Origin: Minisyncoccia bacterium
GTDB taxonomy: Bacteria; Patescibacteriota; Minisyncoccia; Phycocordibacterales; DATDWN01
Assembly: GCA_049297675.1 (NCBI GenBank)
Contig: JBAQUS010000011.1
Location: 101,184-165,183, forward strand
Direction: 5' to 3'
DNA: 64,000 nucleotides
Program-made: the position numbers and the translations under genes
Shown: one piece after another, positions 12,436 to 32,209 of the stretch
How the letters are laid out: each line of letters begins with the position of its first letter
Position numbering within the stretch: the first letter of the stretch is position 1
The notes under the pieces: model-generated
Told to the model about the DNA's origin: nothing
Seen by the model: only the letters and a program-made list of their open reading frames with translations
Databases searched by the model: none

Positions 12436-12437
12436 AT

Positions 12438-15960: not shown

Positions 15961-15985
15961 TTTGAGAGAAGAACTACAGGGATTC

Positions 15986-16085: not shown

Positions 16086-16096
16086 AAAATTAGTCA

Positions 16097-17362: not shown

Positions 17363-17365
17363 TAT

Positions 17366-17653
17366 TTGATGAATTTATCAAAAGATATAATAAATGAATG
17401 GGACCTTGGTACTTTGTCCAAGGAAAGAAAGACTGACGTAGTCAGTCGGATTAGCCGTGTATTGTTCCAGGCACTTATGGTTAGATCACTTGATATACTA
17501 TCTGATTCAGAGCAGTCAGAACTTGATGACTTGATGAGTCAGGATTCAACAACGTCTGAGGATGTTCTTATTTTTTTAAAATCTAAAATTCCAACATTTA
17601 GTGTTCTGGTGAAGGAAGAGAGAGAAAGTTTAAAAAGAAGTATGCAGATTTAG
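17366..17653 (+). CDS. hypothetical protein
   Basis: ORF track. Confidence 0.3.
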   Translation: MMNLSKDIINEWDLGTLSKERKTDVVSRISRVLFQALMVRSLDILSDSEQSELDDLMSQDSTTSEDVLIFLKSKIPTFSVLVKEERESLKRSMQI

Positions 17654-17954
17654 TTCGGGGGTTGACTATTGAATATTTTTTGTCTAGTATTATTGTGTCG
17701 CTTTTGCGACAGTTTTTTCTCTGCTAATTTTCGTAAGTTCCCAAAATTTAGATTTCTCGAACACTAAGTTTTTGGAGTTTCCAAAATGGCAAATTATTAG
17801 AAGATTAATTAAAACAAACACGACGCAAATTACGAATAAAAACGAACCCGTCCGAATGGATTCATCCGGGCGGATGACACGAATCAAATTCTAAATAATT
17901 GAATCTTATTCGTAAATTCGTACTCATTCGTGGATTGGTGTCGAGATAAATATT

Positions 17955-19157
<1,203 letters not shown>

Positions 19158-19330
19158 CAATTATCTTAGGTGACAGAACTTCCAAATTTGGTGAACTTCT
19201 CGTTCCGAATTTGAAAATGCTCGTCACCTTAGCACTAACTAAGGCTTCTCGCATTTTCAAATTCTCACGTCGAATTTCACTCAAATTTGAAAGTTCGTGG
19301 TGACTCTAGAATATAGTTTTCAAAATAAAA

Positions 19331-19368
19331 TCAAAAAACCATCCTGAGTTTATCGTGGGGTGGTTTTT
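19331..19368. terminator. A-run / hairpin / T-run terminator downstream of tuf
   Basis: aaaaaaccatcctgagtttatcgtggggtggtttttt. Confidence 0.45.
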
Positions 19369-19375
19369 TGGTACC

Positions 19376-19430
19376 CTTGCAATTTTTACGGGGGGGGTAA
19401 AATTAAGTGAATAATAATTAACTTAAAATT
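19376..19430 (+). promoter_or_regulatory. conserved promoter/leader module, copy c (TTGCAA, 8 G's, TAAAAT)
   Basis: cttgcaatttttacggggggggtaaaattaagtgaataataattaacttaaaatt followed by ATG. Confidence 0.45.
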
Positions 19431-19844
19431 ATGACAGAAGAAGGATACAAACCAAGTGAAGAAGAGATAGAATTAGCAAAATCTCATATGAGATCAGCGG
19501 AAGGTGTCATGTCTACAAGTAGAGAGTTACAATTTAATAATTTAGCCGAGATGGGCGTTAAGGGTTATTTGTATTTTAGTCATACTCTTGTTGGAGATCA
19601 CGTTGAATATGAATTTGAGGGTGAACTAAATGGTCATAGGGTTTTATTTAAAACTGAAGGTAAACAATTGTTTATTGATGGTGTAGAGGTAGATAAAAAT
19701 AGAGCCATGAGATTTAAGGAGAAATATTGTCCACTAGCAATAGATAAAAGTGCCGAAAATTCATATAATGATTATGCTAGGGTAGAAAGAGAAAAACCAA
19801 TTGAATTAATAAGAGCTGAAGAATTTTTGGACGAAATTCTTTAA
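19431..19844 (+). CDS. hypothetical protein
   Basis: ORF track. Confidence 0.35.
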   Translation: MTEEGYKPSEEEIELAKSHMRSAEGVMSTSRELQFNNLAEMGVKGYLYFSHTLVGDHVEYEFEGELNGHRVLFKTEGKQLFIDGVEVDKNRAMRFKEKYCPLAIDKSAENSYNDYARVEREKPIELIRAEEFLDEIL

Positions 19845-19865
19845 ATTTTAATATATAAATTATTA

Positions 19866-19935
19866 CCTACCACGGAGGCGTTGCCTCCGTGGTACCGCCA
19901 CAACCCCGAGTTAGTTTCTAGTTCGGTGGTTTTTT
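19866..19935 (+). terminator. GC-rich hairpin ccacggaggcGTTgcctccgtgg followed by a second stem and T-run
   Basis: the same hairpin core recurs at about 49835. Confidence 0.4.
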
Positions 19936-19941
19936 GTTTGA

Positions 19942-20184
19942 ATGAAAATGGGAAATATGATAATATGGCCTAATATGAAAAAAACTATTTCATTTAAGAT
20001 ATCAAAGGAGGGAAAACATTATACGGCTTCAGCTGTGGGTTTTTTCATTGTCACAGAGGGGAAAAGTTTAGACGAGCTTTCAAAAAATATAAGAGAAGCA
20101 ACGGAACTTTACTTTGAAGATCATAATAAAAAAAATAAAAATAATTTTAATTCTATTTCGCTAAATTTACCACTATACGTTTAA
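19942..20184 (+). CDS. hicB: HicB-like antitoxin
   Basis: ISFKISKEGKHYTASAVGFFIVTEGKSLDELSKNIREATELYFED fits the HicB RNase-H-fold antitoxin pattern; followed 3 nt later by hicA. Confidence 0.5.
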   Translation: MKMGNMIIWPNMKKTISFKISKEGKHYTASAVGFFIVTEGKSLDELSKNIREATELYFEDHNKKNKNNFNSISLNLPLYV

Positions 20185-20187
20185 TAT

Positions 20188-20427
20188 ATGCCTAGACTGA
20201 GGGATATTTCTGGTAAGCAAATGGTCAGAATCTTTCAAACCCTTGGTTTTGTTGTTTTAAGTCAAAAAGGTAGTCATATCAAGATGTCTAGAGTTCAAGG
20301 TGGAAAAGAGCAGACTTTGGTTATTCCAAACCATACTTCAATCTCAAAAGGAACACTTAAAACAATTTATATTCAGGCAGGTAACTACATTCCTGAAAAT
20401 CAGCTCAAAAAACTTTTTTATACATAG
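20188..20427 (+). CDS. hicA: HicA mRNA interferase toxin
   Basis: ISGKQMVRIFQTLGFVVLSQKGSHIKMSR ... LVIPNHTSISKGTLKTIYIQAG matches HicA (GKELIKLLEKxGFxxVRxKGSHxxxxH ... VPxHxxLxxGTLxSILKQAG). Confidence 0.65.
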   Translation: MPRLRDISGKQMVRIFQTLGFVVLSQKGSHIKMSRVQGGKEQTLVIPNHTSISKGTLKTIYIQAGNYIPENQLKKLFYT

Positions 20428-20500
20428 TTTTATTAAGCGAGGGGAATTGCGACTTATTTACATGCTATTTAGGGTATCATTGTATTGGACAAAACTCCTA

Positions 20501-20529
20501 TTGTACAAAAAACAATTATCTGATAGTAT
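20501..20529 (+). promoter_or_regulatory. sigma70-like promoter upstream of rpsJ: TTGTAC, 17 nt, TAGTAT
   Basis: ttgtacaaaaaacaattatctgatagtat, about 25 nt upstream of the rpsJ ATG. Confidence 0.4.
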
Positions 20530-20551
20530 CGTTCTATTGTAATTTATCAAA

Positions 20552-21022
20552 ATGACTGCCAAGGAAAGCCCAAAAAAACCTGTAGCCAAAAAAACTGCTA
20601 CAAAAAAACCCGCTAATGCAGGTGGGTCTGTTGCTAAACCTTCCGTACCAAAGTCTACAACGAAAGTGGCTAAGACAGTTTCTACTCCAGTCAAGTCTTC
20701 ACCTAAGACCGAGGCTATTTCTAAACTTCGTATACGGGTCAGAGCATACGAGTACAAGATTTTGGATGTTTCAGTAAAGCAGATAATAGATACAGCTCTT
20801 CGTTATGATGCTAAAGTCGAAGGACCTATACCTCTCCCTACTGAGATAAAAAAATACACTGTAAACAGATCATCTTTCGTTTTTAAAAATGCTAGAGAGC
20901 AGTTTGAAATGAGAGTACACAAGAGAGTTATAGACATTCTCAATCCTAGCCCGAAAATAATGGAGGCGTTGACAAACATGTCATTACCAAGTGGAGTTAA
21001 CATTGATGTGAAGATTATTTAG
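20552..21022 (+). CDS. rpsJ: 30S ribosomal protein S10 with an N-terminal K/A/P-rich (histone H1-like) extension of about 55 aa
   Basis: the C-terminal 100 aa (LRIRVRAYEYKILDVSV ... GPIPLPTEIKKYTVNRS) is S10; the N-terminus is KKPVAKKTATKKPANAGG-type low-complexity sequence. Confidence 0.9.
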   Translation: MTAKESPKKPVAKKTATKKPANAGGSVAKPSVPKSTTKVAKTVSTPVKSSPKTEAISKLRIRVRAYEYKILDVSVKQIIDTALRYDAKVEGPIPLPTEIKKYTVNRSSFVFKNAREQFEMRVHKRVIDILNPSPKIMEALTNMSLPSGVNIDVKII

Positions 21023-21230
21023 TGGAAAGTGTGACTAGAACAATTTTATTAAAAATTGTTCGTCCGACCGATTGTATTCAATTGGTTTAGGAAAGTGTGA
21101 AAGTACGACTCTTGAATTCCAAACACATATCTGCTATTGTACTCCAATCGCCTCTGGGCGTTTTTATACGCCTTATCTAGTATTCATTCGTATCATTCGC
21201 ATGAATTCGTAGATTGGTATCGCACTTACT

Positions 21231-21845
21231 ATGAAGTTTATCCTAGGTACAAAAATAAATATGACTCAAATCTTTGATGAAAAAGGTTTGGTCCATCCTG
21301 TAACTGCCATAAAGGCTGGTCCAGTTTTTGTTACTCAAGTCAAGACAGAAAAAACAGATGGCTATAATGCTATTCAAGTTGGTTTCGGTGAGAGAAATCC
21401 AAAAAATATAAACAAAGCTCTCAAGGGTCACATGAAGGACAAAAATTTCATCCATCTTAAAGAATTACGAGTTAAGGGAGAACCTACATACAAAGTTGGT
21501 GATTCAATAGATTTGTCAGCTTTTACAACAGGGGATAAAGTAGTTGTTTCTTCAACATCAAAAGGCAAGGGTTTTCAAGGTGTTGTTAAGAGGCATGGTT
21601 TCAAAGGTGGACCGAGATCTCATGGGCAAAAGCATTCCGAAAGAGAACCAGGTTCTATTGGAGGAGCTGGTCGTGATGGAGGGCGTGTTGCTAAAGGAAA
21701 GAGAATGGCAGGGAGAATGGGGGGTGATAGAATCACACTAAAGGGGCTGACTGTAGTTAGCATGGACACAAAATCAGGGGAGATGTTTATTCGTGGAGCT
21801 GTTCCAGGGAGGAGGGGGACGCTAGTTGAAATACATGGGAGTTAA
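21231..21845 (+). CDS. rplC: 50S ribosomal protein L3
   Basis: GTKINMTQIFDEKGLVHPVTAIKAGP ... GFKGGPRSHGQKHSEREPGSIG. Confidence 0.9.
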   Translation: MKFILGTKINMTQIFDEKGLVHPVTAIKAGPVFVTQVKTEKTDGYNAIQVGFGERNPKNINKALKGHMKDKNFIHLKELRVKGEPTYKVGDSIDLSAFTTGDKVVVSSTSKGKGFQGVVKRHGFKGGPRSHGQKHSEREPGSIGGAGRDGGRVAKGKRMAGRMGGDRITLKGLTVVSMDTKSGEMFIRGAVPGRRGTLVEIHGS

Positions 21846-21880
21846 AAGTGTGAAAGTAGAAAGTATAAAGTAAATTCAAA

Positions 21881-22627
21881 ATGGAAGAGAAAAAGTTAAA
21901 AAAGAATACGAAACCAAAAATGGAGTCTACAAAAGAGACAAAAGTCCCAGTCTCACTTGAAGCAGTCGTTTATGACACAAAAGGTAAAGAATCTGGCAAA
22001 GTTAGCCTACCAGAAGGAGTATTTGGTCAGAAATGGAATGCCGACCTGGTTCATCAGGTGGTTATGTCAATGGAGTCGACACAGAGAACAAATGTTGCTC
22101 ACACCAAAAACCGAGGTGAGGTCAGGGGTGGAGGTAAAAAACCTTGGCAACAAAAAGGTACCGGACGAGCAAGGCATGGTTCTATAAGGTCACCGCTTTG
22201 GGTTGGGGGAGGTGTGACGCATGGTCCTAGAAATGATAAAGATTATTCTAGGAAAATAAATAAAAAAATGAAGGCTAAGGCTCTTTATACTATTCTCTCA
22301 AAAAAATACAGAGACGGACAAGTTTTGTTTGTGGATGAAATCGCACTTAAAGCACCTAAGACAAAAGAAGCCAAAGTTATCCTATCGTCGCTCTCAAAGG
22401 TTTCAGGGTATAATGATTTACTATCAAAGAAAAAAAATTCCGCATACATAGCACTTTCAGCAAAGGACACAAACACAGAAAAAAGTTTTAACAATTTTGG
22501 TAATCTGATGGTGGACGAGATAAGAAACGTAAATCCTGTCAGTCTTTTGAAATATAAATACGTAGTTATATCAAATCCGGAGAGGGGACTATCATTGATT
22601 TCAGAGAAGTTATCAAGTAAAAAGTAG
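21881..22627 (+). CDS. rplD: 50S ribosomal protein L4
   Basis: KNRGEVRGGGKKPWQQKGTGRARHGSIRSPLWVGGGVTHGPR. Confidence 0.9.
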   Translation: MEEKKLKKNTKPKMESTKETKVPVSLEAVVYDTKGKESGKVSLPEGVFGQKWNADLVHQVVMSMESTQRTNVAHTKNRGEVRGGGKKPWQQKGTGRARHGSIRSPLWVGGGVTHGPRNDKDYSRKINKKMKAKALYTILSKKYRDGQVLFVDEIALKAPKTKEAKVILSSLSKVSGYNDLLSKKKNSAYIALSAKDTNTEKSFNNFGNLMVDEIRNVNPVSLLKYKYVVISNPERGLSLISEKLSSKK

Positions 22628-22645
22628 AAAGTATAAAGAAATATA

Positions 22646-22927
22646 ATGAAGAAAGATTTGAATTCAATTTTAATAAAGCCGAGAGTTACAGAAAAAGCTA
22701 CTTTTAAAGCAGAGTCTTCAGTTTATACTTTTGAAGTAACACCAAAGTCTACAAAGTCGCAAATTGAGAGAGCCTTTGAGGAAAAATATAAAATGAGTCC
22801 CGTCAAAATAAGTACAGTGACAATTCCTGCCAAATACGTTTTTGTTCGTGGAAAGAGAGGTAAAAAGTCAGGGTACAAAAAAGCTTATGTGTATTTGAAG
22901 AAGGGTGAGAAGATCGAAAATATTTAA
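22646..22927 (+). CDS. rplW: 50S ribosomal protein L23
   Basis: ILIKPRVTEKATFKAESSVYTFEVTPKSTKSQIERAFEEKY. Confidence 0.9.
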   Translation: MKKDLNSILIKPRVTEKATFKAESSVYTFEVTPKSTKSQIERAFEEKYKMSPVKISTVTIPAKYVFVRGKRGKKSGYKKAYVYLKKGEKIENI

Positions 22928-23032
22928 AGCGATACAAATATACGAATGACATGCGAATGATACGAATTAATAAAATACACTTGCACCCATTCGTTTTATT
23001 CGTATAATTCGTAGGTTCGCATCGATATTATT
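22928..23032 (+). repeat. palindromic ACGAAT-triplet intergenic element (rplW-rplB spacer)
   Basis: agcgatacaaatatacgaatgacatgcgaatgatacgaat ... cattcgttttattcgtataattcgtaggttcgcatcgat. Confidence 0.7.
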
Positions 23033-23875
23033 ATGAAACGCTACAGACCAACAACAAAATCAAGAAGACAAATGTCAACCATTTCTTTTGGTGATCATGT
23101 TACTGTAAAAGAACCATACAAACCTCTTACTCATGGTTTCAGAAGAAAAATGGGAAGAAATAGTTTCGGTGAGATAACTACTCGTCACAAAGGGGGAGGA
23201 GCAAAAAGACTTTTCCGAGAAATAGATTTTAAATATGACAAGATAAACGTTCCATATACTGTAAAAACAGTTGAATACGATCCAAACAGAACAAGTTTTA
23301 TCAGTTTGGTTCAATATTTAGATGGTGAGAGAAGATATGTTATTTTACCAGCTTCGCTTAAGGTTGGTGATGTTTGCATCACAAAAGAAGATGCAGAACA
23401 AAAACCAGGAAATAGATTGCCACTTAAAAATATTAATGTTGGTACTTTTGTGTATAACGTCGAGCTAAAGCCGGGAAGTGGAGCAAAGATAGCTCGTTCT
23501 GCTGGAAATTATGTGGAAGTTATTGCCAAAGACGCTGGATATGTTGACCTAAAAATGCCGTCATCAGAAGTCAGAAAAGTTCTTGAAACATCTTGGGCGT
23601 CAGTTGGGGAAGTTTCAAATAATGAAAATAGATTAGTAAACTTAGGAAAGGCAGGAAGAAGTAGATGGCTAGGTATAAGACCAACAGTCAGAGGTACCGC
23701 AATGAACCCAGTTGATCACCCATACGGAGGAGGAGAGCAGAGACAGGGAAGAGGAAGAAAGAGAGCTATTTCAGTTTACGGCAAACCAACAGGCAAGGGA
23801 CAGAAATCTAGAACGCCGAAGAAATATTCGAACAAGTGGATAGTTTCTCGCCGAAAAGTTGGCAAGAAGAAGTAA
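23033..23875 (+). CDS. rplB: 50S ribosomal protein L2
   Basis: GRNSFGEITTRHKGGGAKR ... MNPVDHPYGGGE. Confidence 0.95.
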   Translation: MKRYRPTTKSRRQMSTISFGDHVTVKEPYKPLTHGFRRKMGRNSFGEITTRHKGGGAKRLFREIDFKYDKINVPYTVKTVEYDPNRTSFISLVQYLDGERRYVILPASLKVGDVCITKEDAEQKPGNRLPLKNINVGTFVYNVELKPGSGAKIARSAGNYVEVIAKDAGYVDLKMPSSEVRKVLETSWASVGEVSNNENRLVNLGKAGRSRWLGIRPTVRGTAMNPVDHPYGGGEQRQGRGRKRAISVYGKPTGKGQKSRTPKKYSNKWIVSRRKVGKKK

Positions 23876-24096
23876 AACTTCCAAAACTGGCGAATTTCTT
23901 TGTTCTCGATTTTACTTCCTCCACGCGCAGTACTAAATGTACAGCTTGGTCGTAAGTAAAATCTGCGAACTTCAAAATTCACTCAGTTTATGAAAGTTTT
24001 ATGAATTCGAGTATAAATCCTAAAATTAGAAAACTTCCAATACTGACTGAGGAGTTTTATTTTTGACAAAGTATAATTTTTTTGTTATAAATTAGT

Positions 24097-24294
24097 TTGG
24101 AGGATGTTATGTCATTTTTCACAGAGGGTATGGTACGTCGGGAGCATGAACGGAGAGACGGGACGCTCACTCAGGTTCTGAGGATCATTGATTCAGAGAT
24201 TTCCAAATGCAATCCTGGGTCTGACCATGGAGCGCAACGTGTCTATGCTCTTCAAGAGCTTCGCAAAAGGATTGTTCGCGAGGTTGCGGAGTGA
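24097..24294 (+). CDS. hypothetical small protein in a GC-rich patch
   Basis: ORF track only; GC-rich relative to the flanks. Confidence 0.2.
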   Translation: MEDVMSFFTEGMVRREHERRDGTLTQVLRIIDSEISKCNPGSDHGAQRVYALQELRKRIVREVAE

Positions 24295-24346
24295 ACACAG
24301 TAGGACGACAAGGGATGCCGAGTCGTCCTTTGTCGTACTAGTGGGA

Positions 24347-24382
24347 TTGACATTTCATATCCAAAGTATATACTTTGGATAT
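24347..24382. promoter_or_regulatory. 34-bp perfect palindrome overlapping the start of the RelB/DinJ-like antitoxin gene (putative autoregulatory operator)
   Basis: tttcatatccaaagtatatactttggatatgaaa. Confidence 0.5.
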
Positions 24383-24656
24383 GAAAACGATGATAAATAT
24401 AAAAACAGATGTTGAGATAAAAAATCAGGCCAAGAAGGTGGCTAAAGAGCTTGGTATTCCACTCGGGACTGTGCTTAACGCATATTTAAGGGAGTTTATT
24501 CAAACTAAGACGGCTCACTTTTCATTGGTACCAAGAATGACAAAAACCTTGGAGCTACTTTTAGGGTCTGTTGAAAAAGATGTGAGGAAGAGAAAAAATC
24601 TTTCCCAAACTTTTTCTTCTGATAAAGAAGCCATTAGTTATCTAAATAATCTCTAA
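24375..24656 (+). CDS. RelB/DinJ-family antitoxin
   Basis: MINIKTDVEIKNQAKKVAKELGIPLGTVLNAYLREFIQTK matches DinJ/RelB. Confidence 0.6.
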   Translation: MDMKTMINIKTDVEIKNQAKKVAKELGIPLGTVLNAYLREFIQTKTAHFSLVPRMTKTLELLLGSVEKDVRKRKNLSQTFSSDKEAISYLNNL

Positions 24657-24661
24657 GTCTT

Positions 24662-24922
24662 ATGAGAGTCGTTTTTCATAAGAATTTTGAAAAGAAATAC
24701 AAAAGACTAAGGTCCTCCGAAAAAGATAGGTTTAAAAAAATTTTAAATACTTTTATTATTGATCCGTTTTATCCAACTTTGAACAACCACGTATTATCTG
24801 GTAAATACGGAGGTTTTAGAAGTATAAATATCGGTGGCGATTTAAGGGCTATTTACAAAATGTTAGATAATGATATGTACCTCTTTGTGACCATTGATTC
24901 ACACAGCAATTTGTATGAATAG
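24662..24922 (+). CDS. RelE/YafQ-family toxin
   Basis: FEKKYKRLRSSEKDRFKKILNTFIIDPFYPTLNNHVLSGKYGGFRSINIGGDLRAIYKM ... DSHSNLY. Confidence 0.6.
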   Translation: MRVVFHKNFEKKYKRLRSSEKDRFKKILNTFIIDPFYPTLNNHVLSGKYGGFRSINIGGDLRAIYKMLDNDMYLFVTIDSHSNLYE

Positions 24923-24981
24923 TATTTAGGTTTGACTAAGTTAGACAGGATCGAGAAGAGATTTGACAAAAAACCACAGTC

Positions 24982-25833
24982 ATGATATGCTTACGAGCAG
25001 AAATGCAGGAATCTCCTGCAACTGATCCAGCAGATCTCTGGAAAGTACGTTCACAGGGAGAAACTGTCATGACGACTCAAGTTGTCGCAGACGGCATTGC
25101 CAAGAGAAAACCGACGGTAGATGAGATGGAAACACTGCTCTTCAATCGCATTCCGGATCTGATTCGCCGCTACAAAGAGGGCGGTCTTGATCCAGCCGGA
25201 GTGAACACGACCCTGCAGATGGTGGCGGAAGGTTCAATCATCACTGAATCGAAAACAGTGGTGGTCGCTCCACCGAAGCCAAAGCAGGACAAGTTCGAAC
25301 TTCTCACGACGTTCGAAGTCACGGTCCCGGAAGGTTACAACCACGCAACTCACCTCGACACGTTCCGTGCACAGCATCAGAGTAAAGAGAACAAGGAGTT
25401 CTACTTCTACAACGATGCCATCACGGACGCGAACTACGCGGCGAAAGCGACGACCAAGTTGACCGCCGGCCGGAGGTTCTTGGTCAAGGCCTTCGGTATC
25501 AAGAAGACGGTGAGTTCACTCGACTGTCTCGCGAAGGTCAAGGCCGAAAACGCTGTTTTGACCGGGGCGCAGGGTGCATCCCTCGTTTACGAGGAGAGGA
25601 AGAACGAATTGCCGAAAGGCAAGTATTACGTCTCTTTCGATGAAAAGGATGCCCTCTGGCGGGATCCGTACGGCTACCACAGGGTGCCGCTCGTGTGCGC
25701 GTACTCCGATGACGACTTTCGCTTCGATCTCGGCCTCTTCGAGTTTGACTGGGTTTCCGTCTACGTCCTCCTCTGCTTCTGCGACTTGCCCAGTGACTCG
25801 TCTTCGGGCGAGGCACAGATCTTGGACGCTTAG
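24982..25833 (+). CDS. DGR target protein (GC-rich gene; the C-terminal ~45 aa are encoded by the variable repeat)
   Basis: its 3' end (about 25654-25786) matches the template repeat at 26200-26332 except at template adenines; the whole gene is about 55% GC. Confidence 0.6.
   Translation: MICLRAEMQESPATDPADLWKVRSQGETVMTTQVVADGIAKRKPTVDEMETLLFNRIPDLIRRYKEGGLDPAGVNTTLQMVAEGSIITESKTVVVAPPKPKQDKFELLTTFEVTVPEGYNHATHLDTFRAQHQSKENKEFYFYNDAITDANYAAKATTKLTAGRRFLVKAFGIKKTVSSLDCLAKVKAENAVLTGAQGASLVYEERKNELPKGKYYVSFDEKDALWRDPYGYHRVPLVCAYSDDDFRFDLGLFEFDWVSVYVLLCFCDLPSDSSSGEAQILDA
25654..25786 (+). repeat. DGR variable repeat (VR)
   Basis: 133-nt match to the TR; about 18 mismatches, all but one at TR adenines. 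Confidence 0.7.
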
Positions 25834-26199
25834 AACCTTAAACAAGTTCTTTGCTTTCTTTGATCCTTCCGTTTTTTCCAGGCCCCTGCTTTACCGCGGG
25901 GGTCCTTCTTTATATACTTTTCTTTTATTAATGTTTTCTATACAATAATCTTGGATATTCGATCGGGTGAGCGATCACGGTTTCTCACTATCGCTATCTT
26001 GTAAAAGGGATCAATGAGGATTCACCGAGCAATATTTTTTCTTAGCTTTGTGAATGAGAATTGCCTTTTATAAAAAAAACAAAATAAGTCGGTGTGATAG
26101 GTTATCGAGCGTATCAGTTATGACACATAAGGCTCGGAATGAAGTACAGAGGGTGACTGGTGTTGCTCTCGGTGATAATAGACGACCTATCATACATTG

Positions 26200-26332
26200 C
26201 TCTGGCAGGATCCGAACGGCAACCACAGGGTGCCGCTCGTGAACGCGAACTCCGATGACGACTTCAACTTCGATCTCGACAACTTCGAGAATGACTGGAA
26301 TTCCGACTACGTCCTCCTCTGCTTCTGCAACT
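26200..26332 (+). repeat. DGR template repeat (TR)
   Basis: non-coding copy of the VR carrying AAC codons (ALWQDPNGNHRVPLVNANSDDDFNFDLDNFENDWNSDY) where the VR encodes Y/C/R/L/F/V. Confidence 0.7.
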
Positions 26333-26373
26333 CATTTGTTTCTCCTCCATCTTTTAGGTGGGGGAGTTTCTTT

Positions 26374-26733
26374 TTACAATCTCTCCTGAATATCTTTCTT
26401 CCATCCTCCAAGCATTCGTCCGACTTCATCGAGATTGAGAATAAGAACTCCGTATTGTTTGTTATCTATGATTTTGTGTTCCCACGCTATTTGAAGGAAA
26501 AATTTAAGTAAATCATCTTTACCAATTGCTTGTGATACTAAAGAAAGCTTCTCAAATTTATCATATGCAAAACAGGCTCGAAATATTAATTCAAGTAGAG
26601 AAAGAAACAAATCGTCAATTTGTGTCCCGATAGTATTTCGATCAACACGATTAACTTTCTCTAAATAATCATGCCAAACTCTATATCCTTCTTTTGCACG
26701 GACTAAAACGAGGGGCGACGTTATCGGGGGGGT
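26374..26733 (-). CDS. avd: Avd-like accessory variability determinant (four-helix bundle, 23S-IVS protein family); the ORF-track start at 26610 is TTG and homology continues upstream to a stop at about 26734 with no canonical start codon
   Basis: LFLSLLELIFRACFA ... LLKFFLQIAWEHKIIDNKQYGVLILNLDEVGRMLGGWKK fits the Avd/IVS pattern (...VS ... LRFWLR ... IAEVGRILGxW). Confidence 0.5.
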   Translation of the reverse strand, partial: TPPITSPLVLVRAKEGYRVWHDYLEKVNRVDRNTIGTQIDDLFLSLLELIFRACFAYDKFEKLSLVSQAIGKDDLLKFFLQIAWEHKIIDNKQYGVLILNLDEVGRMLGGWKKDIQERL

Positions 26734-26776
26734 TCATCATAGTTTTATTATCTGTGTTGTAATTTTTTATGCTATA

Positions 26777-27769
26777 TTGAATTTCGTGTTCGCTCACAAA
26801 TATACAGACATAATAACCATAGAAAATATTTTGGCAACATGGGGTCATTTTGTTTGTGGTAAGCGCAAGAAAAGAGACGTCAGAACTTTTCAATTACTGC
26901 TTGCTGATAATCTCATTACGCTATACAAAGAACTTACTGAAAAAACATATGAACATGGTAATTATTCAGCTTTTAATATATCAGATCCTAAACCGAGAAA
27001 TATACATAAAGCATTGGTAAGAGATAGAGTCATTCATCATCTAATATATAAGGAGTTGTATTGGTATTTCCATGAAAGACTGATATTTGATTCGTATTCG
27101 TGCAGAAAATATAAGGGGACTCACAAAGCTCTTGATAGGTTTGAACTTTTTGCTGGAAAAGTCTCAAAAAATCATACGAGAACGTGTTATGTATTAAAAT
27201 GCGATATTAAAAAATTCTTTGCTTCAATTGATCAGAAGTCTCTGATGCAGGTTCTTGATCGGCATATTGAAGACGAAGATATTAAATGGTTGATTAATCA
27301 AGTGTTAAAAAGTTTTCATACAACTGATGTGGGTGTAGGTTTGCCACTAGGTAATCTTAGCTCTCAATTACTGGTAAATATCTATATGCATGAGTTCGAT
27401 ATGTATGTGAAACAGGAACTGAGAGTTAAATATTATATCCGTTACGCTGACGATTTTGTTTTTCTATCAGATGATAAAAAATATCTTGAAGATCTTTTAC
27501 CAAAAATAAGGTTGTTTTTACAAGATAAGCTTCATTTATCTCTCCACCCTAACAAAGTGTTTATACAAACGTCCAGTTTAGGAGTGGATTTTCTAGGCTG
27601 GATTCACTTTCCGCACCATCGCATTATTAGAACTACAACAAAACGTAAGATTATTAAAAACACAAAATGGTATCCACGTCATGAAACAGTCAATTCATAT
27701 CGAGGTCTACTGGGACACGGAAATACCCATGAATTACAAGAGAAAATTGGAATTATTAAACATGCGTAA
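26777..27769 (+). CDS. DGR-type reverse transcriptase
   Basis: RT motifs including GLPLGNLSSQLLVNIYM (the SQ signature of DGR RTs, cf. IGNLTSQ) and RYADDFVFL (YxDD box). Confidence 0.8.
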   Translation: MNFVFAHKYTDIITIENILATWGHFVCGKRKKRDVRTFQLLLADNLITLYKELTEKTYEHGNYSAFNISDPKPRNIHKALVRDRVIHHLIYKELYWYFHERLIFDSYSCRKYKGTHKALDRFELFAGKVSKNHTRTCYVLKCDIKKFFASIDQKSLMQVLDRHIEDEDIKWLINQVLKSFHTTDVGVGLPLGNLSSQLLVNIYMHEFDMYVKQELRVKYYIRYADDFVFLSDDKKYLEDLLPKIRLFLQDKLHLSLHPNKVFIQTSSLGVDFLGWIHFPHHRIIRTTTKRKIIKNTKWYPRHETVNSYRGLLGHGNTHELQEKIGIIKHA

Positions 27770-27959
27770 TTTTTTTACCTGCCATAAGTTAAAAAGTTGA
27801 CATTATAACCTATTTTGTATAGTATGTTTGGCACATAAGAGCCATTACCTCTTAGGTGAAGTTTTGTGTGGTATTCGCAAAATGCCTCTACAAAGAGCGC
27901 TTTTTCTTTTGAGTTTATTCGTTTCATTCGTATGAATTCGTATATTAGCATCGCTTAAT

Positions 27960-28298
27960 ATGACAAGATCATCCAAAAAAGGTCCATACGTAGACGAGAG
28001 AGTCCTCAAAAAGATTGAGGGTAGAAAGCCTCTGGAAACTGGAGTCATAAAGACATGGTCAAGAGCCTGTGTTATCTCTCCTGAGATGATCGGTTTTACT
28101 TTCGGAGTTCATAACGGTAAAACACATTTGGACGTGCTAGTATCAGAGGATATGATTGGTCACAGACTTGGAGAATTCTCACCTACAAAGAAGTTTATAA
28201 AACACGGAGGTAAGATGCAGAAAGAGCTTGAGATGAAGAAGAAGGAATCTGAAATTGCGGCAGCATCAGCGGCAAAGGCGGAGCCAGCCAAGAAGTAA
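27960..28298 (+). CDS. rpsS: 30S ribosomal protein S19 (with a K/A/E-rich C-terminal tail)
   Basis: [16 protein letters not shown] ... [29 protein letters not shown]. Confidence 0.9.
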
Positions 28299-28410
28299 AT
28301 TAACGCGATGCAAATATACGAATACATACGAATGAAATGAATAGATGTAGTCAATTACCCCGTTAATTTGTATCATTCGTAAAATTCGTAGATTAGTATC
28401 GACATCATAT
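28299..28410 (+). repeat. palindromic ACGAAT-triplet intergenic element (rpsS-rplV spacer)
   Basis: aacgcgatgcaaatatacgaatacatacgaatgaaatgaat ... gtatcattcgtaaaattcgtagattagtatcga. Confidence 0.7.
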
Positions 28411-28860
28411 ATGACAATGAAAACAGCTAAAGCAACATTGGGAAATTTCAGACAAGCTCCTCGTAAAATGAGGCTTATTGCTAATGCTGTCAGAGGCAAA
28501 AAAGTTTCAGATGCACTTGTTAACCTGGATTTTATCGCAAAGAGAGCATCTAGCCCGATAAAAACTCTCATTGCTTCTGCTTTGGCAAATGCCAAGACTC
28601 TTGATATCCCAACAGACAATCTTGTTGTTAAAACAATTCAAGTAAATGGAGGTTCTATAATGTACAGGAGACTGCCAGCCGCTCGTGGAAGTGCACATCC
28701 CATGAGAAAAAGAACCAGCTCTGTCTATGTTGAGCTCGGAGAGGCAGAAGTTAAAAGTAAAAAGTCGAAAGTAGAAAGAAATGCAGTTTCTTTGCCTGAA
28801 ATTAGTAAGGAAAAGTCTATCAAGAGTACAAAGACTGCAAAGGCTAAAACAAAGAATTAA
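28411..28860 (+). CDS. rplV: 50S ribosomal protein L22 (with a K-rich C-terminal tail)
   Basis: AKATLGNFRQAPRKMRLIANAVRGKKVSDALVNLDF. Confidence 0.9.
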   Translation: MTMKTAKATLGNFRQAPRKMRLIANAVRGKKVSDALVNLDFIAKRASSPIKTLIASALANAKTLDIPTDNLVVKTIQVNGGSIMYRRLPAARGSAHPMRKRTSSVYVELGEAEVKSKKSKVERNAVSLPEISKEKSIKSTKTAKAKTKN

Positions 28861-28898
28861 CTTTATGTACTTTTTACTTTAAACTTTATAACTAACAT

Positions 28899-29558
28899 AT
28901 GACTCATCAAGTTCACCCATATTCACATAGGCTAGGCATAATCAGGGATTGGAAATCTCGATGGTTTGGGGTAAAAAATAAATATAAGGAATTTCTTAAA
29001 AGTGATGTACTTCTTCGAAGCCATCTTGAGAAAAAAATGAGAGGTATGTATGTTTCTAATATCGAGATGGAAAGAGGTGAGAAAGTATTGAGGATAATAA
29101 TTGAGACATCAAGACCTGGAATGATTATTGGTAGAAGCGGAGACGGGGCTGTAAAACTCAAAAACGATATCGTATCTTTCCTAAATAAAAACAAACTTTC
29201 TTCAGGGGGTGAGGTAAAAGTAGATATTAAGGAGATTAAATCCCCTGAGTCTAATTCGACTATAGTTGCACAGATGATTGCTGATGGGCTGGAGAAAAGA
29301 TTACCCTTCAGACGAGTTGCTAAGCAAATGATAGAAAAAGTTGTAGCAAACAGAGACGTGCAAGGCGTAAAAATAGAGCTTTCTGGCAGGCTGGCTGGAG
29401 CAACAATGGCAAGAAAGGAGAAACTAAAGAAAGGAAGAATTCCTCTTCAGACTTTTCGAGCCGATGTTGATTTTGCTAGATACGAAGCTAGATTACCGTA
29501 CGGTGGCATTGGTATAAAGGTCTGGATTTATAAGGGAGAAATATTTGCCAAGAAATAA
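28899..29558 (+). CDS. rpsC: 30S ribosomal protein S3
   Basis: KH-domain region RPGMIIGRSGDGAVKLKNDI and full-length S3 similarity. Confidence 0.9.
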   Translation: MTHQVHPYSHRLGIIRDWKSRWFGVKNKYKEFLKSDVLLRSHLEKKMRGMYVSNIEMERGEKVLRIIIETSRPGMIIGRSGDGAVKLKNDIVSFLNKNKLSSGGEVKVDIKEIKSPESNSTIVAQMIADGLEKRLPFRRVAKQMIEKVVANRDVQGVKIELSGRLAGATMARKEKLKKGRIPLQTFRADVDFARYEARLPYGGIGIKVWIYKGEIFAKK

Positions 29559-29631
29559 ACATGACACCAATACACGAATGAAAACGAATGACACGAATAA
29601 AAGAATAGTTAGAGGTAATTAAAAATCTGCT

Positions 29632-30054
29632 ATGTTATTCCCAAAAAAAGTAAAATATAGAAAGTGGCATACATTTAGAAAGAACCCAGAAAAAGTTGGG
29701 GTTGCTTCTCGTGGAATAACAGTAGCTTTTGGATCTCATGGTCTAAAAGCTATGGAGGGAGCCAGAATAATGTCGAACCAGATTGAGTCTGCAAGAAAAG
29801 TTCTATCTCGAGAGATAGGAAAGACTGGAAAAATGTGGATCAGAATTTTTCCAGACATGCCACTTACAAAAAAGCCAGCCGAAGTAAAGCTCGGAAAAGG
29901 CAAAGGGGACTTATTCGGATATTGTGCTCCAGTCAAACCAGGAAGGGTTCTCTTTGAAGTTGATGGGGTGACTGAGTCAGTGGCCAAAGAGGCATTGAGA
30001 AAAGCTGGGACAAAATTACCACTTAAAACAAAGATAGTGGCGGCAATACATTAA
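29632..30054 (+). CDS. rplP: 50S ribosomal protein L16
   Basis: MLFPKKVKYRKWHTFRK ... RMGKGKG-type motif KLGKGKGD. Confidence 0.9.
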   Translation: MLFPKKVKYRKWHTFRKNPEKVGVASRGITVAFGSHGLKAMEGARIMSNQIESARKVLSREIGKTGKMWIRIFPDMPLTKKPAEVKLGKGKGDLFGYCAPVKPGRVLFEVDGVTESVAKEALRKAGTKLPLKTKIVAAIH

Positions 30055-30161
30055 AAGCGATGCAAATATACGAAAACATACGAATGATACGAAATATAAG
30101 AGAACATTTGCACCCATTCGTTCTATTAGTATAATTCGTTGATTCGTATCGATATCATAAT
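30055..30161 (+). repeat. palindromic ACGAAT-triplet intergenic element (rplP-rpmC spacer)
   Basis: aagcgatgcaaatatacgaaaacatacgaatgatacgaaat ... cattcgttctattagtataattcgttgattcgtatcgat. Confidence 0.7.
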
Positions 30162-30350
30162 ATGATAAAAGATTTGATAAAAAAAACAGAAAAGGAACTC
30201 AGAATACTTCTTACAGAAAAGAGGTTGGCATTGAGAAACTTTAGATTTTCTATTGCCGGAAGTAATGTTAGAAATGTAAAGGAGGGCTTAGTCTTGAAAA
30301 AAGATATAGCTAGAATTCTGACAATCTTGAATAAGAAGGAAAATAAATAA
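30162..30350 (+). CDS. rpmC: 50S ribosomal protein L29
   Basis: [29 protein letters not shown]; conserved position between rplP and rpsQ. Confidence 0.8.
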
Positions 30351-30358
30351 AAATAAAA

Positions 30359-30622
30359 ATGGAAACCAAAAGCCTAAAAATGGAAGTTTCAAAAAAGAAG
30401 ATCTTGACCGGGATTGTAATTTCAGACAAGATGAAAGAAACTGTTGTAGTAGAGGTGGTAAGGTTTGTTAAACACCCCAAATATGGCAAGTATTATAAGG
30501 TCAACAAGAAGTACAAAGCTCACGATGCTGGGAATACTAAGAAGATAGGGGATAGGGTTCTGATACAGGAATGCAGACCGATATCGAAAGATAAACATTT
30601 CGTCGTAATTCAAGGAGCGTAG
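30359..30622 (+). CDS. rpsQ: 30S ribosomal protein S17
   Basis: [41 protein letters not shown]. Confidence 0.85.
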
Positions 30623-30639
30623 TGACTATGAATTACACG

Positions 30640-30790
30640 ACCCAGCCCTAATTTTACGAAACAATTATGAATAAAATATTAAAAAACCACATATCTGGCA
30701 TTGAAAATAATTTCTTGTCTTGCAGACAAGAAATTGGAATGATACCTTTAGTAAAATTAGGGCTGGGTGGTGATTTTTATAATCGCTTCG
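30640..30790. repeat. roughly 150-bp element bounded by a perfect 17-bp inverted repeat (ACCCAGCCCTAATTTTA / TAAAATTAGGGCTGGGT) with an inner palindrome ttcttgtcttgcagacaagaa; rpsQ-rplN spacer
   Basis: read directly from the sequence; the minus-strand 70-aa ORF inside is probably spurious. Confidence 0.5.
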
Positions 30791-30809
30791 CTCGTTAAAA
30801 ATCAACCAA

Positions 30810-31181
30810 ATGATACAACCAAGATCAATAGTAAAAATAGCTGATAACTCTGGAGCAACTTTGGGCAGAATTTTCAAAGTACTCGGAAGTTCAAAAAAGA
30901 GATATGCCAGTATAGGTGAGAAAGTTGTGTTATCAATCCAGAAGGCTCAGCCAAGAAAGACAACAAAAAAGAAGGATGTTGTTTATGGGCTAGTTGTCAG
31001 ACAAAAGGCTCCGTTTAGAAGAAAGGACGGTTCATATATAAGGTTTGATGAAAATGCAGTGGTTATAGTTATGAAAGACAAACTTGAACCAGTTGCCGGT
31101 CGTGTTTTCGGTCCTATACCTAGGGAAATCGGTGAAGTAGGATATCAAAAGATTATTTCTTTAGCACCAGAAGTGGTTTAA
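30810..31181 (+). CDS. rplN: 50S ribosomal protein L14
   Basis: MIQPRSIVKIADNSGA ... full-length L14. Confidence 0.9.
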   Translation: MIQPRSIVKIADNSGATLGRIFKVLGSSKKRYASIGEKVVLSIQKAQPRKTTKKKDVVYGLVVRQKAPFRRKDGSYIRFDENAVVIVMKDKLEPVAGRVFGPIPREIGEVGYQKIISLAPEVV

Positions 31182-31288
31182 TGCGATGCAAATATACGAA
31201 TACATGCGAATTATACGAATAAAAAAAAGTGTGTGTTGCGTTTATTCGTTTCATTCGTATAATTCGTAGATTAGTATCGAAAACATTT
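31182..31288 (+). repeat. palindromic ACGAAT-triplet intergenic element (rplN-rplX spacer)
   Basis: tgcgatgcaaatatacgaatacatgcgaattatacgaat ... cgtttattcgtttcattcgtataattcgtagattagtatcga. Confidence 0.7.
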
Positions 31289-31507
31289 ATGTTTATAAAA
31301 AAAGACGACAAAGTAATAGTTTTGACTGGTAAGGATAAAGGAAAGTCTGGTACTGTGACAAAGGCTATGCCAAAAACTGGCAAAGTTATAGTATCAGGTA
31401 TAAATATTTCAAAGGTTCACCAAAAGCCAAGAAAAAGCGGTGAAAAGGGTCAAATAATAGACAAAGTCATGCCGATTGATGTATCCAACCTAAAGAAAGC
31501 AAAATAA
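31289..31507 (+). CDS. rplX: 50S ribosomal protein L24
   Basis: MFIKKDDKVIVLTGKDKGKSGTVTKAMPKTGKVIVSGINISKVHQKP (KOW motif); the ORF-track start at 31229 lies inside the repeat element. Confidence 0.85.
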   Translation: MFIKKDDKVIVLTGKDKGKSGTVTKAMPKTGKVIVSGINISKVHQKPRKSGEKGQIIDKVMPIDVSNLKKAK

Positions 31508-31618
31508 AAAAGCGATACAAATATACGAATGACATGCGAATTATACGAATTAATACCAAACATATCTTGCATTCATTCGTTTCATTCGTATAATTCGTAG
31601 ATTAGTATCGATATAAAC
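31508..31618 (+). repeat. palindromic ACGAAT-triplet intergenic element (rplX-rplE spacer)
   Basis: agcgatacaaatatacgaatgacatgcgaattatacgaat ... cattcgtttcattcgtataattcgtagattagtatcga. Confidence 0.7.
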
Positions 31619-32209
31619 ATGAAAACAATTAAAGAAAAAGTAAAAGAATCGTTTGAGATGCTGAAGACTGAATTCGGTTATAAAAACGCTATGCAAGCAC
31701 CAAAAATTCAAAAAGTTATTGTGTCTTCTGGCGTGGGATCAATAAAGGACAAGAAAAAGATAGATCTAGTTGAAGATAGATTGTCCAAAATTACTGGACA
31801 AAAACCTGCGAGAAAGGGAGCAAAAATCTCAATAGCTTCTTTCAAAGTTAGACAGGGAGATATTGTTGGTATGCAGATAACACTTCGGGGAGCCAGAATG
31901 TATGATTTTCTTGATAGACTTATAAATCTAGCTCTTCCTAGAACAAAGGATTTTAGAGGTATATCAAGTAACGGCATAGACGGAATGGGTAACTATTCTT
32001 TTGGTATAAAAGAAAACACCATTTTTCCAGAATGTAGCGATGAAGAACTAAAAGATGTTTTTGGCATGGCAGTAACTGTTGTAACAAATGTAAAAAATCC
32101 AAAGGAAACAAAAGCTTTTCTGACCCATCTAGGTTTTCCATTCAAAAAGGTTGAAACAAAAGAGATAAAGGAGAAACCGAAGCGAGAGAAGAAACCAAAA
32201 GCAGAGTAA
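31619..32209 (+). CDS. rplE: 50S ribosomal protein L5
   Basis: full-length L5 similarity (APKIQKVIVSSGVG ... ITLRGARMYDFLDRLINLALPR). Confidence 0.9.
   Translation: MKTIKEKVKESFEMLKTEFGYKNAMQAPKIQKVIVSSGVGSIKDKKKIDLVEDRLSKITGQKPARKGAKISIASFKVRQGDIVGMQITLRGARMYDFLDRLINLALPRTKDFRGISSNGIDGMGNYSFGIKENTIFPECSDEELKDVFGMAVTVVTNVKNPKETKAFLTHLGFPFKKVETKEIKEKPKREKKPKAE

Follow-up and report, generated by a model that had tools for sequence, protein, structure and literature searches.

A diversity-generating retroelement between rplB and rpsS of a Minisyncoccia bacterium, with a structured leader 5' of its TR and a homopolymer run in avd

Results

The space between rplB and rpsS in this Minisyncoccia genome holds a diversity-generating retroelement (DGR) together with a toxin-antitoxin pair. 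The following features were placed within the 64-kb window, by which we mean the whole stretch of DNA that was analysed:

23033..23875, + strand: rplB, ribosomal protein L2 (Pfam Ribosomal_L2_N, E = 4.6e-31; Ribosomal_L2_C, E = 3.9e-47); left boundary
24054..24294, + strand: promoter-like TTGACAAAGTAT box, common to relatives, with a small GC-rich ORF and a hairpin
24347..24922, + strand: RelB/RelE (YafQ-like) toxin-antitoxin pair (genes 24375..24922) with a promoter-like site
24963..24991, + strand: promoter-like site of the target gene (TTGACA-17-TATGCT, with TG before it; promoter scan)
24982..25833, + strand: DGR target gene (longest ORF), containing VR at its 3' end
25654..25786, + strand: VR, placed by alignment with TR
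25881..25904, + strand: GC-rich hairpin followed by a T-rich tail, 3' of the target stop codon
25941..25946, + strand: -10-like box
25955..26199, + strand: structured leader of the TR RNA (RNAalifold, covariance model R1)
26200..26332, + strand: TR, non-coding, placed by alignment with VR
26342..26376, + strand: hairpin (11 pairs, loop of 3) and T-run, directly 3' of TR
26374..26740, - strand: avd, with the Avd body uninterrupted between 26733 and its stop at 26374-26376
26726..26732, no strand assigned: G7 run (C7 when read along avd), separating the avd ATG from the Avd body
26777..27769, + strand: DGR reverse transcriptase (RT; TTG at 26777; RVT_1, E = 8.9e-22; LPLGNLSSQ and YADDFV motifs)
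27797..27825, + strand: promoter-like site before rpsS (TTGACA-17-TAGTAT), kept in relatives without the DGR
27960..28298, + strand: rpsS, ribosomal protein S19 (Pfam Ribosomal_S19, E = 1.1e-31); right boundary

The small ORF beside the TTGACAAAGTAT box runs from an ATG at 24107 to a stop at 24294 and has no Pfam or NCBIfam match; the segment 24054-24074 matches relative L143 at 95%. The toxin-antitoxin genes match TIGR02384 RelB_DinJ (1.2e-9), TIGR02385 RelE_StbE (6.4e-10) and PF15738 YafQ (5.6e-10), and the promoter scan placed their promoter-like site (24347-24374) at 11/12 to the consensus. An earlier note on this DNA had located the cassette and the RelBE pair between rplB and rpsS, which holds, and had described them as splitting an otherwise universal junction; in relatives without the DGR, whose L2 is 84-89% identical, the two genes already stand 600-950 nt apart. 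In their gap, rplB is followed by a hairpin with a T-run and by small GC-rich ORFs that are unrelated, and rpsS is preceded by the same TTGACA...TAGTAT promoter; the corresponding segment here (27796-27839) matches L143.

We consider it improbable that a mobile element recently entered and broke an intact S10 operon, leaving rpsS and the genes downstream in need of read-through across the DGR. In its favour, the adjacency of rplB and rpsS is, to our knowledge, close to universal in bacteria, and a toxin-antitoxin pair, typical of mobile DNA, lies beside the cassette. However, the gap and the rpsS promoter of the DGR-free relatives argue against such an event, as does the locus itself, which showed neither an integrase nor att-like repeats nor phage genes. 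The same direction is indicated by other junctions of this cluster, since rpsG|fusA, fusA|tuf and tuf|rpsJ in the window also carry toxin-antitoxin pairs and unknown ORFs. Because the relatives' junction is already open and rpsS has its own promoter, sequence comparison leads us to regard the DGR and RelBE as cargo in a pre-existing variable slot. The position of the DGR inside a ribosomal-protein cluster is unusual, not unique.

VR and TR align without gaps at an offset of 546, and 115 of 133 bases match (86.5%), in agreement with the two ~133-nt segments of about 86% identity first reported. Seventeen of the 18 mismatches fall at TR adenines, and 17 of the 31 TR adenines differ in VR (Fisher p = 1.3e-10 for A versus non-A, two flanking non-A mismatches included). 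The sole non-A mismatch, already listed as a T/C exception, is TR C26265 against VR T25719 and is synonymous (TTC/TTT), while all 17 adenine-site mismatches lie at codon position 1 or 2. The TR frame has nine AAC/AAT codons; AAC/AAT (or CAG, GAC) codons in TR stand opposite VR residues Y, Y, C, Y, R, L, F, V, R, G, V and D, consistent with the initial observation of AAC codons facing Y, C, R, L, F and V. No further copy of the repeat was found on either strand of the window. Towards the 3' end, 22 nt of VR (25761-25782, CTACGTCCTCCTCTGCTTCTGC) are A-poor and the same as in TR, and the homology breaks off abruptly after ACT, beyond this stretch. Its A-poor, GC-rich 3' end and the divergence beyond allow us to class it as IMH/IMH*-like. 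As a separate observation, VR could not be compared cleanly between two related loci, L084 and L085, because one of the assemblies had collapsed TR and VR.

Gene callers start the RT at GTG 26786, giving 327 aa, and the RT is intact. The earlier note had described a downstream RT with a GLPLGNLSSQ-type motif and YADDFV, and the coding region carries both. The best PDB relative is 8ub7_A (E = 5.8e-39, 137.6 bits, residues 11-309), which we take to be the Bordetella phage bRT; other RTs reach at most 56 bits. From this match and the LGNLSSQ and YADD motifs, we assign the RT to the DGR clade. That it is instead a group II intron, retron or defence RT beside a chance repeat has a negligible probability. 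In NCBIfam, a model of group II intron RTs ranks first (125 bits), ahead of Drt3a and retron models, but all these scores are far under the cut-offs (125 vs 300 bits, 74 vs 235 bits). Moreover, 8ub7_A leads among solved relatives by 80 bits, the adenine bias (p ~1e-10) speaks against a chance repeat, Rfam finds no intron or retron RNA at the element, and an Avd gene adjoins the RT. Like cassettes in 17 other genomes have 10-21 of their 11-21 TR/VR mismatches at A. With its adenine-specific TR/VR pair, RT, Avd body and lectin-like target, the locus is a real DGR.

The target gene starts at 25003 in the NCBI call, and its homologues begin at MTTQ, corresponding to 25069. The protein combines a variable N-terminal part with a conserved C-terminal domain that carries VR and is C-type-lectin-like, the fold that the first reading had suggested looking for; it belongs to no Pfam family, and inspection by eye showed neither a signal peptide nor a transmembrane segment. 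The gene is GC-rich compared with its surroundings, as had been remarked (54% vs ~36%), and its GC3 is 0.65 vs 0.27 in the RT. Such figures would fit an assembly or binning chimera in which a GC-rich target and TR from another organism were joined to an AT-rich Patescibacteria contig. Nevertheless, we consider a chimera highly improbable, as three independent assemblies agree base for base over all junctions and the GC excess recurs in 16/16 cassettes and 29/30 target-only loci of unrelated projects. Adenine-specific mutagenesis of the whole gene was also ruled out as the source of the excess: T3 is depleted as well as A3, which makes the GC-richness a general property of the gene.

Target genes of related loci recur in translation-gene clusters, and at ~35/53 genome loci the target stands without RT or avd. 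Targeting in trans was considered for the TR of L025 against L052, where the comparison showed the two contigs to carry one and the same gene, 100% identical over 700 nt. The hairpin at 25881..25904 is either the terminator of the target gene or the inverted repeat found downstream of VR in some DGRs; a perfect GC-rich hairpin lies 53-100 nt past VR at 9/17 related loci.

The minus-strand Avd-like ORF reported downstream (26374..26610) does match Pfam bAvd (PF22296; E = 7.6e-9, 36.5 bits, under the gathering score of 40). This 78-aa ORF begins at TTG 26610, the first in-frame canonical start; 41 further conserved N-terminal Avd codons are open, without an in-frame ATG, GTG or TTG, and the nearest upstream ATGs (26740-26735) are in a different frame from the Avd body. 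The earlier note had missed that avd has no in-frame canonical start beyond 78 codons. Removal of one G yields a 121-aa Avd that scores 46.5 bits vs the gathering score of 40, and the Avd body also matches NF033474 (E = 1.3e-10). The NCBI MAG and two independent Logan assemblies all show the same G7 run.

The length of a homopolymer in the 5' coding region of avd sets its reading frame. A C6-C15 run at this end occurs in ~63 of 82 distinct related cassettes, down to 42% Avd identity, and the resulting frame is near random (a shift of +1 is needed at 26 loci, of -1 at 17, and no shift at 13), so that an out-of-frame avd is normal for these cassettes. At 22 loci, the stretch from the run to the conserved Avd domain lacks any canonical start, and the Avd body is intact in 18/18 cassettes examined. 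Loci L030 and L071 are identical over 5336 nt except for C11 vs C15, and C9 vs C8 separates otherwise identical contigs, with assembler ambiguity possible in both cases. Two explanations of the frame were discarded. A universal programmed +1 frameshift at the run is ruled out by the mixture of required shifts, and a GTG start inside an LVLV motif fails as a general solution, being absent in the window and in five others of the first 18 cassettes. The poly-C run is apparently an undescribed, putative control feature. For Avd to be made, the frame would have to change within the G7/C7 run, whether through slippage in replication or transcription or through ribosomal frameshifting; the element would therefore probably be silent or weakly active in the sequenced majority genotype.

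An unlikely explanation is that the DGR is a decaying, inactive relic in which the G7 frameshift inactivates avd, VR is frozen and the locus is moving to the target-only state. The out-of-frame avd start would fit, and so would a VR that is the same in all available assemblies (consensus contigs with the same RT or target compared), the one non-A mismatch in TR/VR, the many loci at which the target stands alone and the existence of a decayed cassette elsewhere, which lacks avd and retains an RT stub of 174 aa. On the other hand, the run is kept across most cassettes in near-random frames, and nothing is broken here in the Avd body, the catalytic motifs of the RT, the structure of the TR RNA (see below) or the 3' hairpin. 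A second out-of-frame cassette, with the same C9 in six samples, also argues against decay.

Upstream of TR, where the TR transcript would begin, the -10-like box reads TACAAT here and TATAAT or TATACT in relatives, and it forms conserved columns in the 18- and 36-locus alignments. The leader that follows comprises these elements, with the stems predicted by RNAalifold:

25967-76/25979-88, + strand: P1
26000-08/26064-72, + strand: P2
26013-15/26060-62, + strand: P2a
26020-30/26045-55, + strand: P2b
~26073-26089, + strand: A-rich linker between P2 and P3
26092-103/26184-95, + strand: P3
26106-10/26132-36, + strand: P3a
26149-57/26162-70, + strand: P3b

The consensus has 55 pairs, with compensatory changes in 44 of them; compared with slid controls, paired cells amount to 95.3% vs 36-48% and the covariation scores to 0.565 vs 0.12-0.16. 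Covariance model R1, built on the 3' domain of the leader, scores 126.9 bits at this locus and finds 40 further cassettes, each on the strand opposite avd, with matches at 0/22 of the searched loci that lack avd. The leader has no Rfam match, the sole Rfam result being a spurious plant microRNA outside the element. We consider the ~240-nt structured leader a well-supported new RNA family, and a structured leader 5' of TR is apparently undescribed.

Among 50 related loci inspected by eye, most have a hairpin followed by TTTT directly past TR, its stem sequence differing between loci, and the RNAalifold consensus on 28 of them is weak (6 pairs, covariation term -0.42). The hairpin at 26342..26376 probably ends the TR RNA and, by analogy, may be the counterpart of the Bordetella Avd-binding stem-loop. 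The -10 box, leader, TR, hairpin and U-run all lie on one strand. Pairing between the linker and the TR 3' flank is stronger with a locus's own partner than with those of other loci (-4.71 vs -3.94 kcal/mol, permutation p ~0.001).

Discussion

We describe what we read, with a probability of roughly 0.85, as a chromosomal DGR of the Patescibacteria type, lying in a variable slot between the rplB terminator region and the rpsS promoter. The following mechanism is proposed. Leader, TR and hairpin would be transcribed as a separate ~420-nt RNA; RT and Avd would bind this RNA, copy TR into cDNA and misincorporate opposite adenines. The cDNA would then replace VR, so that the ligand-binding face of the target could be recoded at as many as 12 AAY-type codons. 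The leader would probably take the role that the 3' spacer has in the Bordetella phage element. Its A-rich linker is proposed to pair with a U-rich stretch that starts exactly at the end of the TR/VR homology, so that a nucleotide of the leader would sit at the 3' boundary of TR, in position to prime.

More tentatively, Patescibacterial DGRs in general may use two undescribed cis-elements, a leader platform with linker pairing and a poly-C-limited Avd, combined with a GC-rich target that settles in the translation supercluster; we hold this wider view as a possibility short of even odds. In such a scheme, the leader platform would replace the Bordetella 3' spacer for RT-Avd docking and priming. 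The poly-C run would make hypermutation rare, stochastic or slippage-dependent, rather than constitutive.

Thousands of DGRs are known and architecture B3 is the CPR norm, so the locus adds little as a DGR. Its interest lies in a new RNA family whose scaffold, in CPR DGRs, is organised differently from that of the only mechanistically studied DGR, and whose leader yields a concrete, testable priming model. Through the homopolymer conserved at its start, avd could provide targeted hypermutation with an inbuilt on/off switch or throttle, which bears on how cells limit the cost of DGR activity. Additionally, the clustering of the target family in str-S10-spc and its GC excess hint at a link to translation-gene neighbourhoods or expression level, in organisms whose targets have no known function.

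Architecture B3, target-TR-(avd)-RT, accounts for 90% of CPR DGRs, and ribosomal-protein genes lie inside some of them (Wu et al. 2018, NAR 46:11, PMC5758913); DGR clade 2 occurs in Patescibacteria only (Roux et al. 2021, PMC8144416). The order TR-(avd)-RT, an avd on the reverse strand and an upstream target are all found here. Our locus thus resembles the CPR DGRs of both studies in gene order, strands and cellular, non-phage setting, and in a target without a recognisable domain or transmembrane segment; it differs in that the whole cassette lies between rplB and rpsS. The leader, the avd poly-C run and the target GC excess find no mention in the CPR DGR papers that were read.

With the DGR of Bordetella phage BPP-1 (mtd-avd-TR-brt), the element shares the pattern of adenine-specific TR-to-VR transfer, an RT that aligns over ~300 residues with 8ub7_A, presumed to be bRT, and the presence of an Avd body. 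In both, VR is C-terminal and lies in a lectin-like fold, the 3' ends of VR and TR have an A-poor stretch in common, and a stem-loop stands directly past TR. In BPP-1, avd lies upstream on the same strand, whereas here it is antisense. The functional RNA of BPP-1 consists of 20 nt of avd, TR and a 140-nt 3' spacer that contains the priming adenosine and RT- and Avd-binding elements. In contrast, only ~40 nt follow TR here, with a single hairpin between TR and the antisense avd in place of a Bordetella-type structured spacer, and the large structured part is 5' of TR. The host is a cell instead of a phage, and the target has no tail-fibre context.

The avd run also recalls the poly-G/poly-C contingency loci of Campylobacter, Helicobacter, Neisseria and Haemophilus, which undergo phase variation by slipped-strand mispairing. 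Common to both are a G/C run of 7-13 nt just past the start codon in an AT-rich genome, and a run length that puts the gene in or out of frame; a length that differs between otherwise identical sequences may be a further likeness. They differ in that two cassettes here hold one out-of-frame length, in 3 and 6 samples, and in what would be controlled: a surface structure in contingency loci, and a mutagenesis cofactor in this element.

The retroelement and its class

The two ~133-nt segments reported as a repeat pair (25654-25786 in the target gene, VR; 26200-26332, TR) align without gaps at an offset of 546, with 115 of 133 bases matching (~86%). On realignment, 17 of the 18 mismatches fall at a TR adenine (Fisher p = 1.3e-10 for A against non-A), as the earlier note had claimed, and the single exception it allowed is a synonymous C/T difference between TR and VR. 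The changed sites, 17 of the 31 adenines in the TR, carry T (nine), G (six) or C (two) in the VR and all lie at codon position 1 or 2; no further copy of the repeat was found within the 64-kb window. These 17 altered adenines show past activity of a diversity-generating retroelement (DGR). The VR is identical among all contigs carrying the window's reverse transcriptase (RT) or target, all of them consensus assemblies, and the single non-A difference and an out-of-frame avd fit an element that is quiet at present.

The proposed RT (26777/26786-27769) is borne out by an RVT_1 match and by LGNLSSQ and YADD motifs. Among solved structures it comes closest to chain 8ub7_A (E 5.8e-39, 137.6 bits, ~300 residues aligned), whose sequence we take to be that of Bordetella phage bRT. 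A group II intron or retron type is very unlikely: the solved RTs of group II introns, retrons and Drt systems reach at most 56 bits, and its scores lie far under the cut-offs of the NCBIfam models for these three classes. The minus-strand ORF described as Avd-like does match the bAvd and DivGenRetAVD models, although the matches take in no more than the C-terminal two thirds of each.

Scanning one genome per species for relatives of the target yielded 53 loci, 17 of which share the window's target(+)-TR(+)-avd(-)-RT(+) arrangement, their TR/VR mismatches lying all or nearly all at adenines. This layout has been named architecture B3 (Wu et al. 2018, PMC5758913), and a cell-encoded DGR clade restricted to Patescibacteria, with targets lacking recognisable domains, has been described (Roux et al. 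2021, PMC8144416), so that neither the inverted avd nor the ribosomal neighbourhood is new in itself. The element is a true DGR, one more example of the known CPR type, and its position among ribosomal-protein genes is notable, yet precedented. Its leader RNA and avd homopolymer are features of the whole cassette family and merit follow-up in their own right.

Several related loci depart from the simple layout. L011 has two target genes (repeats at 2958-3079 and 5745-5866) facing one TR (3462-3583), from which they differ at 16 and 11 sites, every one an adenine. A decayed cassette (P0110 locus, L148-L155), between pheS and gyrB near rpsB-tsf in at least 25 contigs from many samples, consists of a target gene followed by a 174-aa RT stub, avd being absent. 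Two contigs of one MAG (L025 and L052) share a target gene that is 100% identical across 700 nt, VR included, one with a full cassette and the other without, which would be either duplication or strain heterogeneity.

The rplB-rpsS slot and the translation-gene cluster

The genes are ordered rpsJ-rplC-rplD-rplW-rplB, a 4.1-kb block, rpsS-rplV-rpsC-rplP-rpmC-rpsQ-rplN-rplX-rplE. Contig JBAQTD010000011.1 (GCA_049296815.1, a Minisyncoccia, Patescibacteria MAG) is 100% identical to window 19003-31833, and the Logan assemblies of three different sequencing runs show no difference from the window wherever they align (24357-29711, 24357-27991 and 24705-26548). Two independent Logan contigs (L002 and L003) share one break point, both beginning at 24357, just upstream of relB; there may be population heterogeneity to its left.

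The earlier note had the cassette and a RelBE pair splitting the otherwise universal rplB-rpsS junction. Their placement there holds; the splitting does not, as the closest relatives by L2 (89% and 84% identity; loci L143 and L147) have no DGR and already show rplB-rpsS gaps of 600-950 nt. Both carry a hairpin with a T-run after rplB, then one or more unrelated GC-rich small ORFs, then a TTGACA...TAGTAT promoter with a leader ahead of rpsS; in L143 a promoter-like box, TTGACAAAGTAT, also follows the hairpin. The window keeps both conserved ends of this slot (24054-24074 and 27796-27839), and between them lie a 61-codon GC-rich ORF, RelBE and the DGR.

Features of the rplB-rpsS slot
24107-24294 (window), ~3490-3800 (L143), 6599-6904 (L147): small GC-rich ORF, unrelated across loci, with its own promoter-like box
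24347: strong promoter-like site of RelBE
24963: strong promoter-like site of the target gene
27797: strong promoter-like site of rpsS

Other junctions of the cluster are filled too. The rpsG-fusA interval spans 4.9 kb (8017-12924) and holds what look by eye like three RelE/antitoxin-type pairs, unknown ORFs and a Cas2/PaaX-like gene (9028-9417, Pfam); fusA-tuf spans 2.9 kb (15065-17955) with two large unknown ORFs; and tuf-rpsJ (19157-20552) contains a 137-aa ORF and HicAB, the latter preceding rpsJ. A disruptive hit on an intact operon was rejected because the junction is open in DGR-free relatives, the conserved ends are retained and other junctions are likewise filled. The pre-opened junction and filled neighbouring junctions make the DGR, as we read these comparisons, cargo in a permissive slot that had been split beforehand.

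Many ribosomal-protein operon spacers are also filled by a palindromic repeat of ~105 nt that matches itself in both orientations; the closest relatives have tight junctions at these places. The repeat is a possible MITE- or REP-like element.

Copies of the ~105-nt palindromic repeat
7442-7544
21181-21223
22928-23032
27914-27955
28305-28408
30056-30158
31183-31280
31511-31614
46989-47065
47322-47398

Target homologues, mostly without a DGR, often lie co-directionally within the str-S10-spc translation-gene region.

Locations of target-only homologues
M50 peptidase gene to rpsL: L032, L033, L041 and probably L024
recJ to rnhA: L036, where the Cas2/PaaX-like gene lies between rpsG and fusA as in the window
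~400 nt downstream of a homologue of the Cas2/PaaX-like gene: L020
upstream of tuf-rpsJ: L046
adk to map: L005

A second complete cassette occupies the M50/rpsL site in six samples (L156-L161). Using the window's ORFs as reference (E 1e-10 or better), we found no ribosomal-protein or other translation-cluster ORF within 2.5 kb of ~80 metagenomic cassettes; complete cassettes in the cluster are thus rare, and lone targets there common.

The target is GC-rich as claimed (GC3 0.65 against 0.27 for the RT), a gap present in 16 of 16 cassettes. Target-only homologues exceed their flanks in 29 of 30 cases, by a mean of 10 points, and across these 16 cassettes and 30 loci almost every genome has its target gene 10-25 GC points above RT, avd and flanks. 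Adenine-specific mutagenesis of the whole gene fails to explain the excess, since A3 and T3 are both low.

A poly-C run at the avd start

The window's Avd reading frame stays open over 119 codons, with no ATG, GTG or TTG ahead of codon 42. A pair of ATGs lies shortly before the conserved Avd body in another frame, and a homopolymer separates them from it.

26726-26732: G7 run (C7 in avd sense), between the upstream ATGs and the Avd body

With C6 instead of C7, the gene would encode a 121-aa Avd above the Pfam threshold. This out-of-frame start is not a local accident, given that, in genomes and metagenomes combined, 63 of 82 distinct 5' ends of avd have a C6-C13 run (mode 9-10) between start codon and Avd body (loci within L009-L056 and L063-L142). 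This run accounts for about 61 of all 83 G/C runs of at least 7 nt in the 1.18 Mb of loci; L011 has a (CA)n repeat in its place. All 18 cassettes examined retain an intact Avd body. Run length differs between L030 (C11) and L071 (C15), otherwise identical over 5336 nt, and between a second pair of contigs with no or almost no other difference (C9 and C8); by contrast, G7 in the window does not vary among three assemblies, nor does the out-of-frame C9 of another cassette among six samples.

Where a sole upstream ATG frame is open, it agrees with the Avd frame in 13 loci, whereas 17 require -1 and 26 require +1, a split no different from random; in 22 loci the segment from the run to the conserved PLVLV motif lacks a canonical start. 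We conclude that the run is probably a selected feature and that in most cassettes Avd synthesis would need a frame change within it, which may be phase variation in DNA, slippage in RNA or a ribosomal event; alternatively, the run may be non-coding in role, with Avd initiated non-canonically. The run may serve to control the DGR accessory protein through phase variation or slippage; no report of a poly-C run at the avd start was found in the searchable literature. Two more G runs occur in the AT-rich window, G7 at 9496-9502 and G8 at 19390-19397, the latter 34 nt upstream of an unknown ORF (19431..19844), and may be further slippage-prone sites.

A structured leader RNA upstream of the TR

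A 250-nt segment ahead of the TR is conserved among cassettes; it begins at a conserved -10-like box right after a hairpin 3' of the target gene.

25955-26199: structured RNA leader, ~240 nt, directly 5' of the TR (leader alignments A4 and A6; covariance model R1 of its 3' domain)

RNAalifold on 36 sequences gave seven helices with 55 pairs, 44 of which show compensatory double changes. Paired cells amount to 95.3%, against 36-48% with partners slid by 1-3 columns, and the covariation score is 0.565, against 0.12-0.16 in the slid controls; none of 500 shuffles reached the observed values. Many G-U pairs assign the structure to the TR strand. R1 matched 40 further cassettes, some with Avd only 42-52% identical, always on the strand opposite avd; it matched once in the window and in none of 22 avd-less loci searched. 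Rfam gave no match in the leader region.

By eye, a hairpin then TTTT directly follows the TR in most of ~50 related loci, with varying stem sequences; RNAalifold on 28 loci supports six pairs only, with weak covariation. The window's terminator-like copy lies at 26342-26366 (26342-26376 with its U-run). In most relatives the 3' arm of this hairpin reads, on the opposite strand, as the final codons of avd (KTPxxK*), which means that the TR RNA ends within the sequence for the avd C-terminus.

The A-rich linker between helices P2 and P3 (26073-26089) is complementary to a U-rich stretch (26330-26345) that starts exactly where TR/VR homology ends. Own-locus pairing is the stronger, at -4.71 kcal/mol against -3.94 for shuffled pairs (p about 0.001), with compensatory examples such as CAGAU/AUCUG and AAUUAAAU/AUUUAAUU, which suggests a possible long-range duplex at the cDNA initiation site. 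The leader would then prime cDNA synthesis. The Bordetella element has its structured RNA, which primes and binds protein, on the 3' side of the TR, whereas in this cassette the structured RNA apparently lies on the 5' side.
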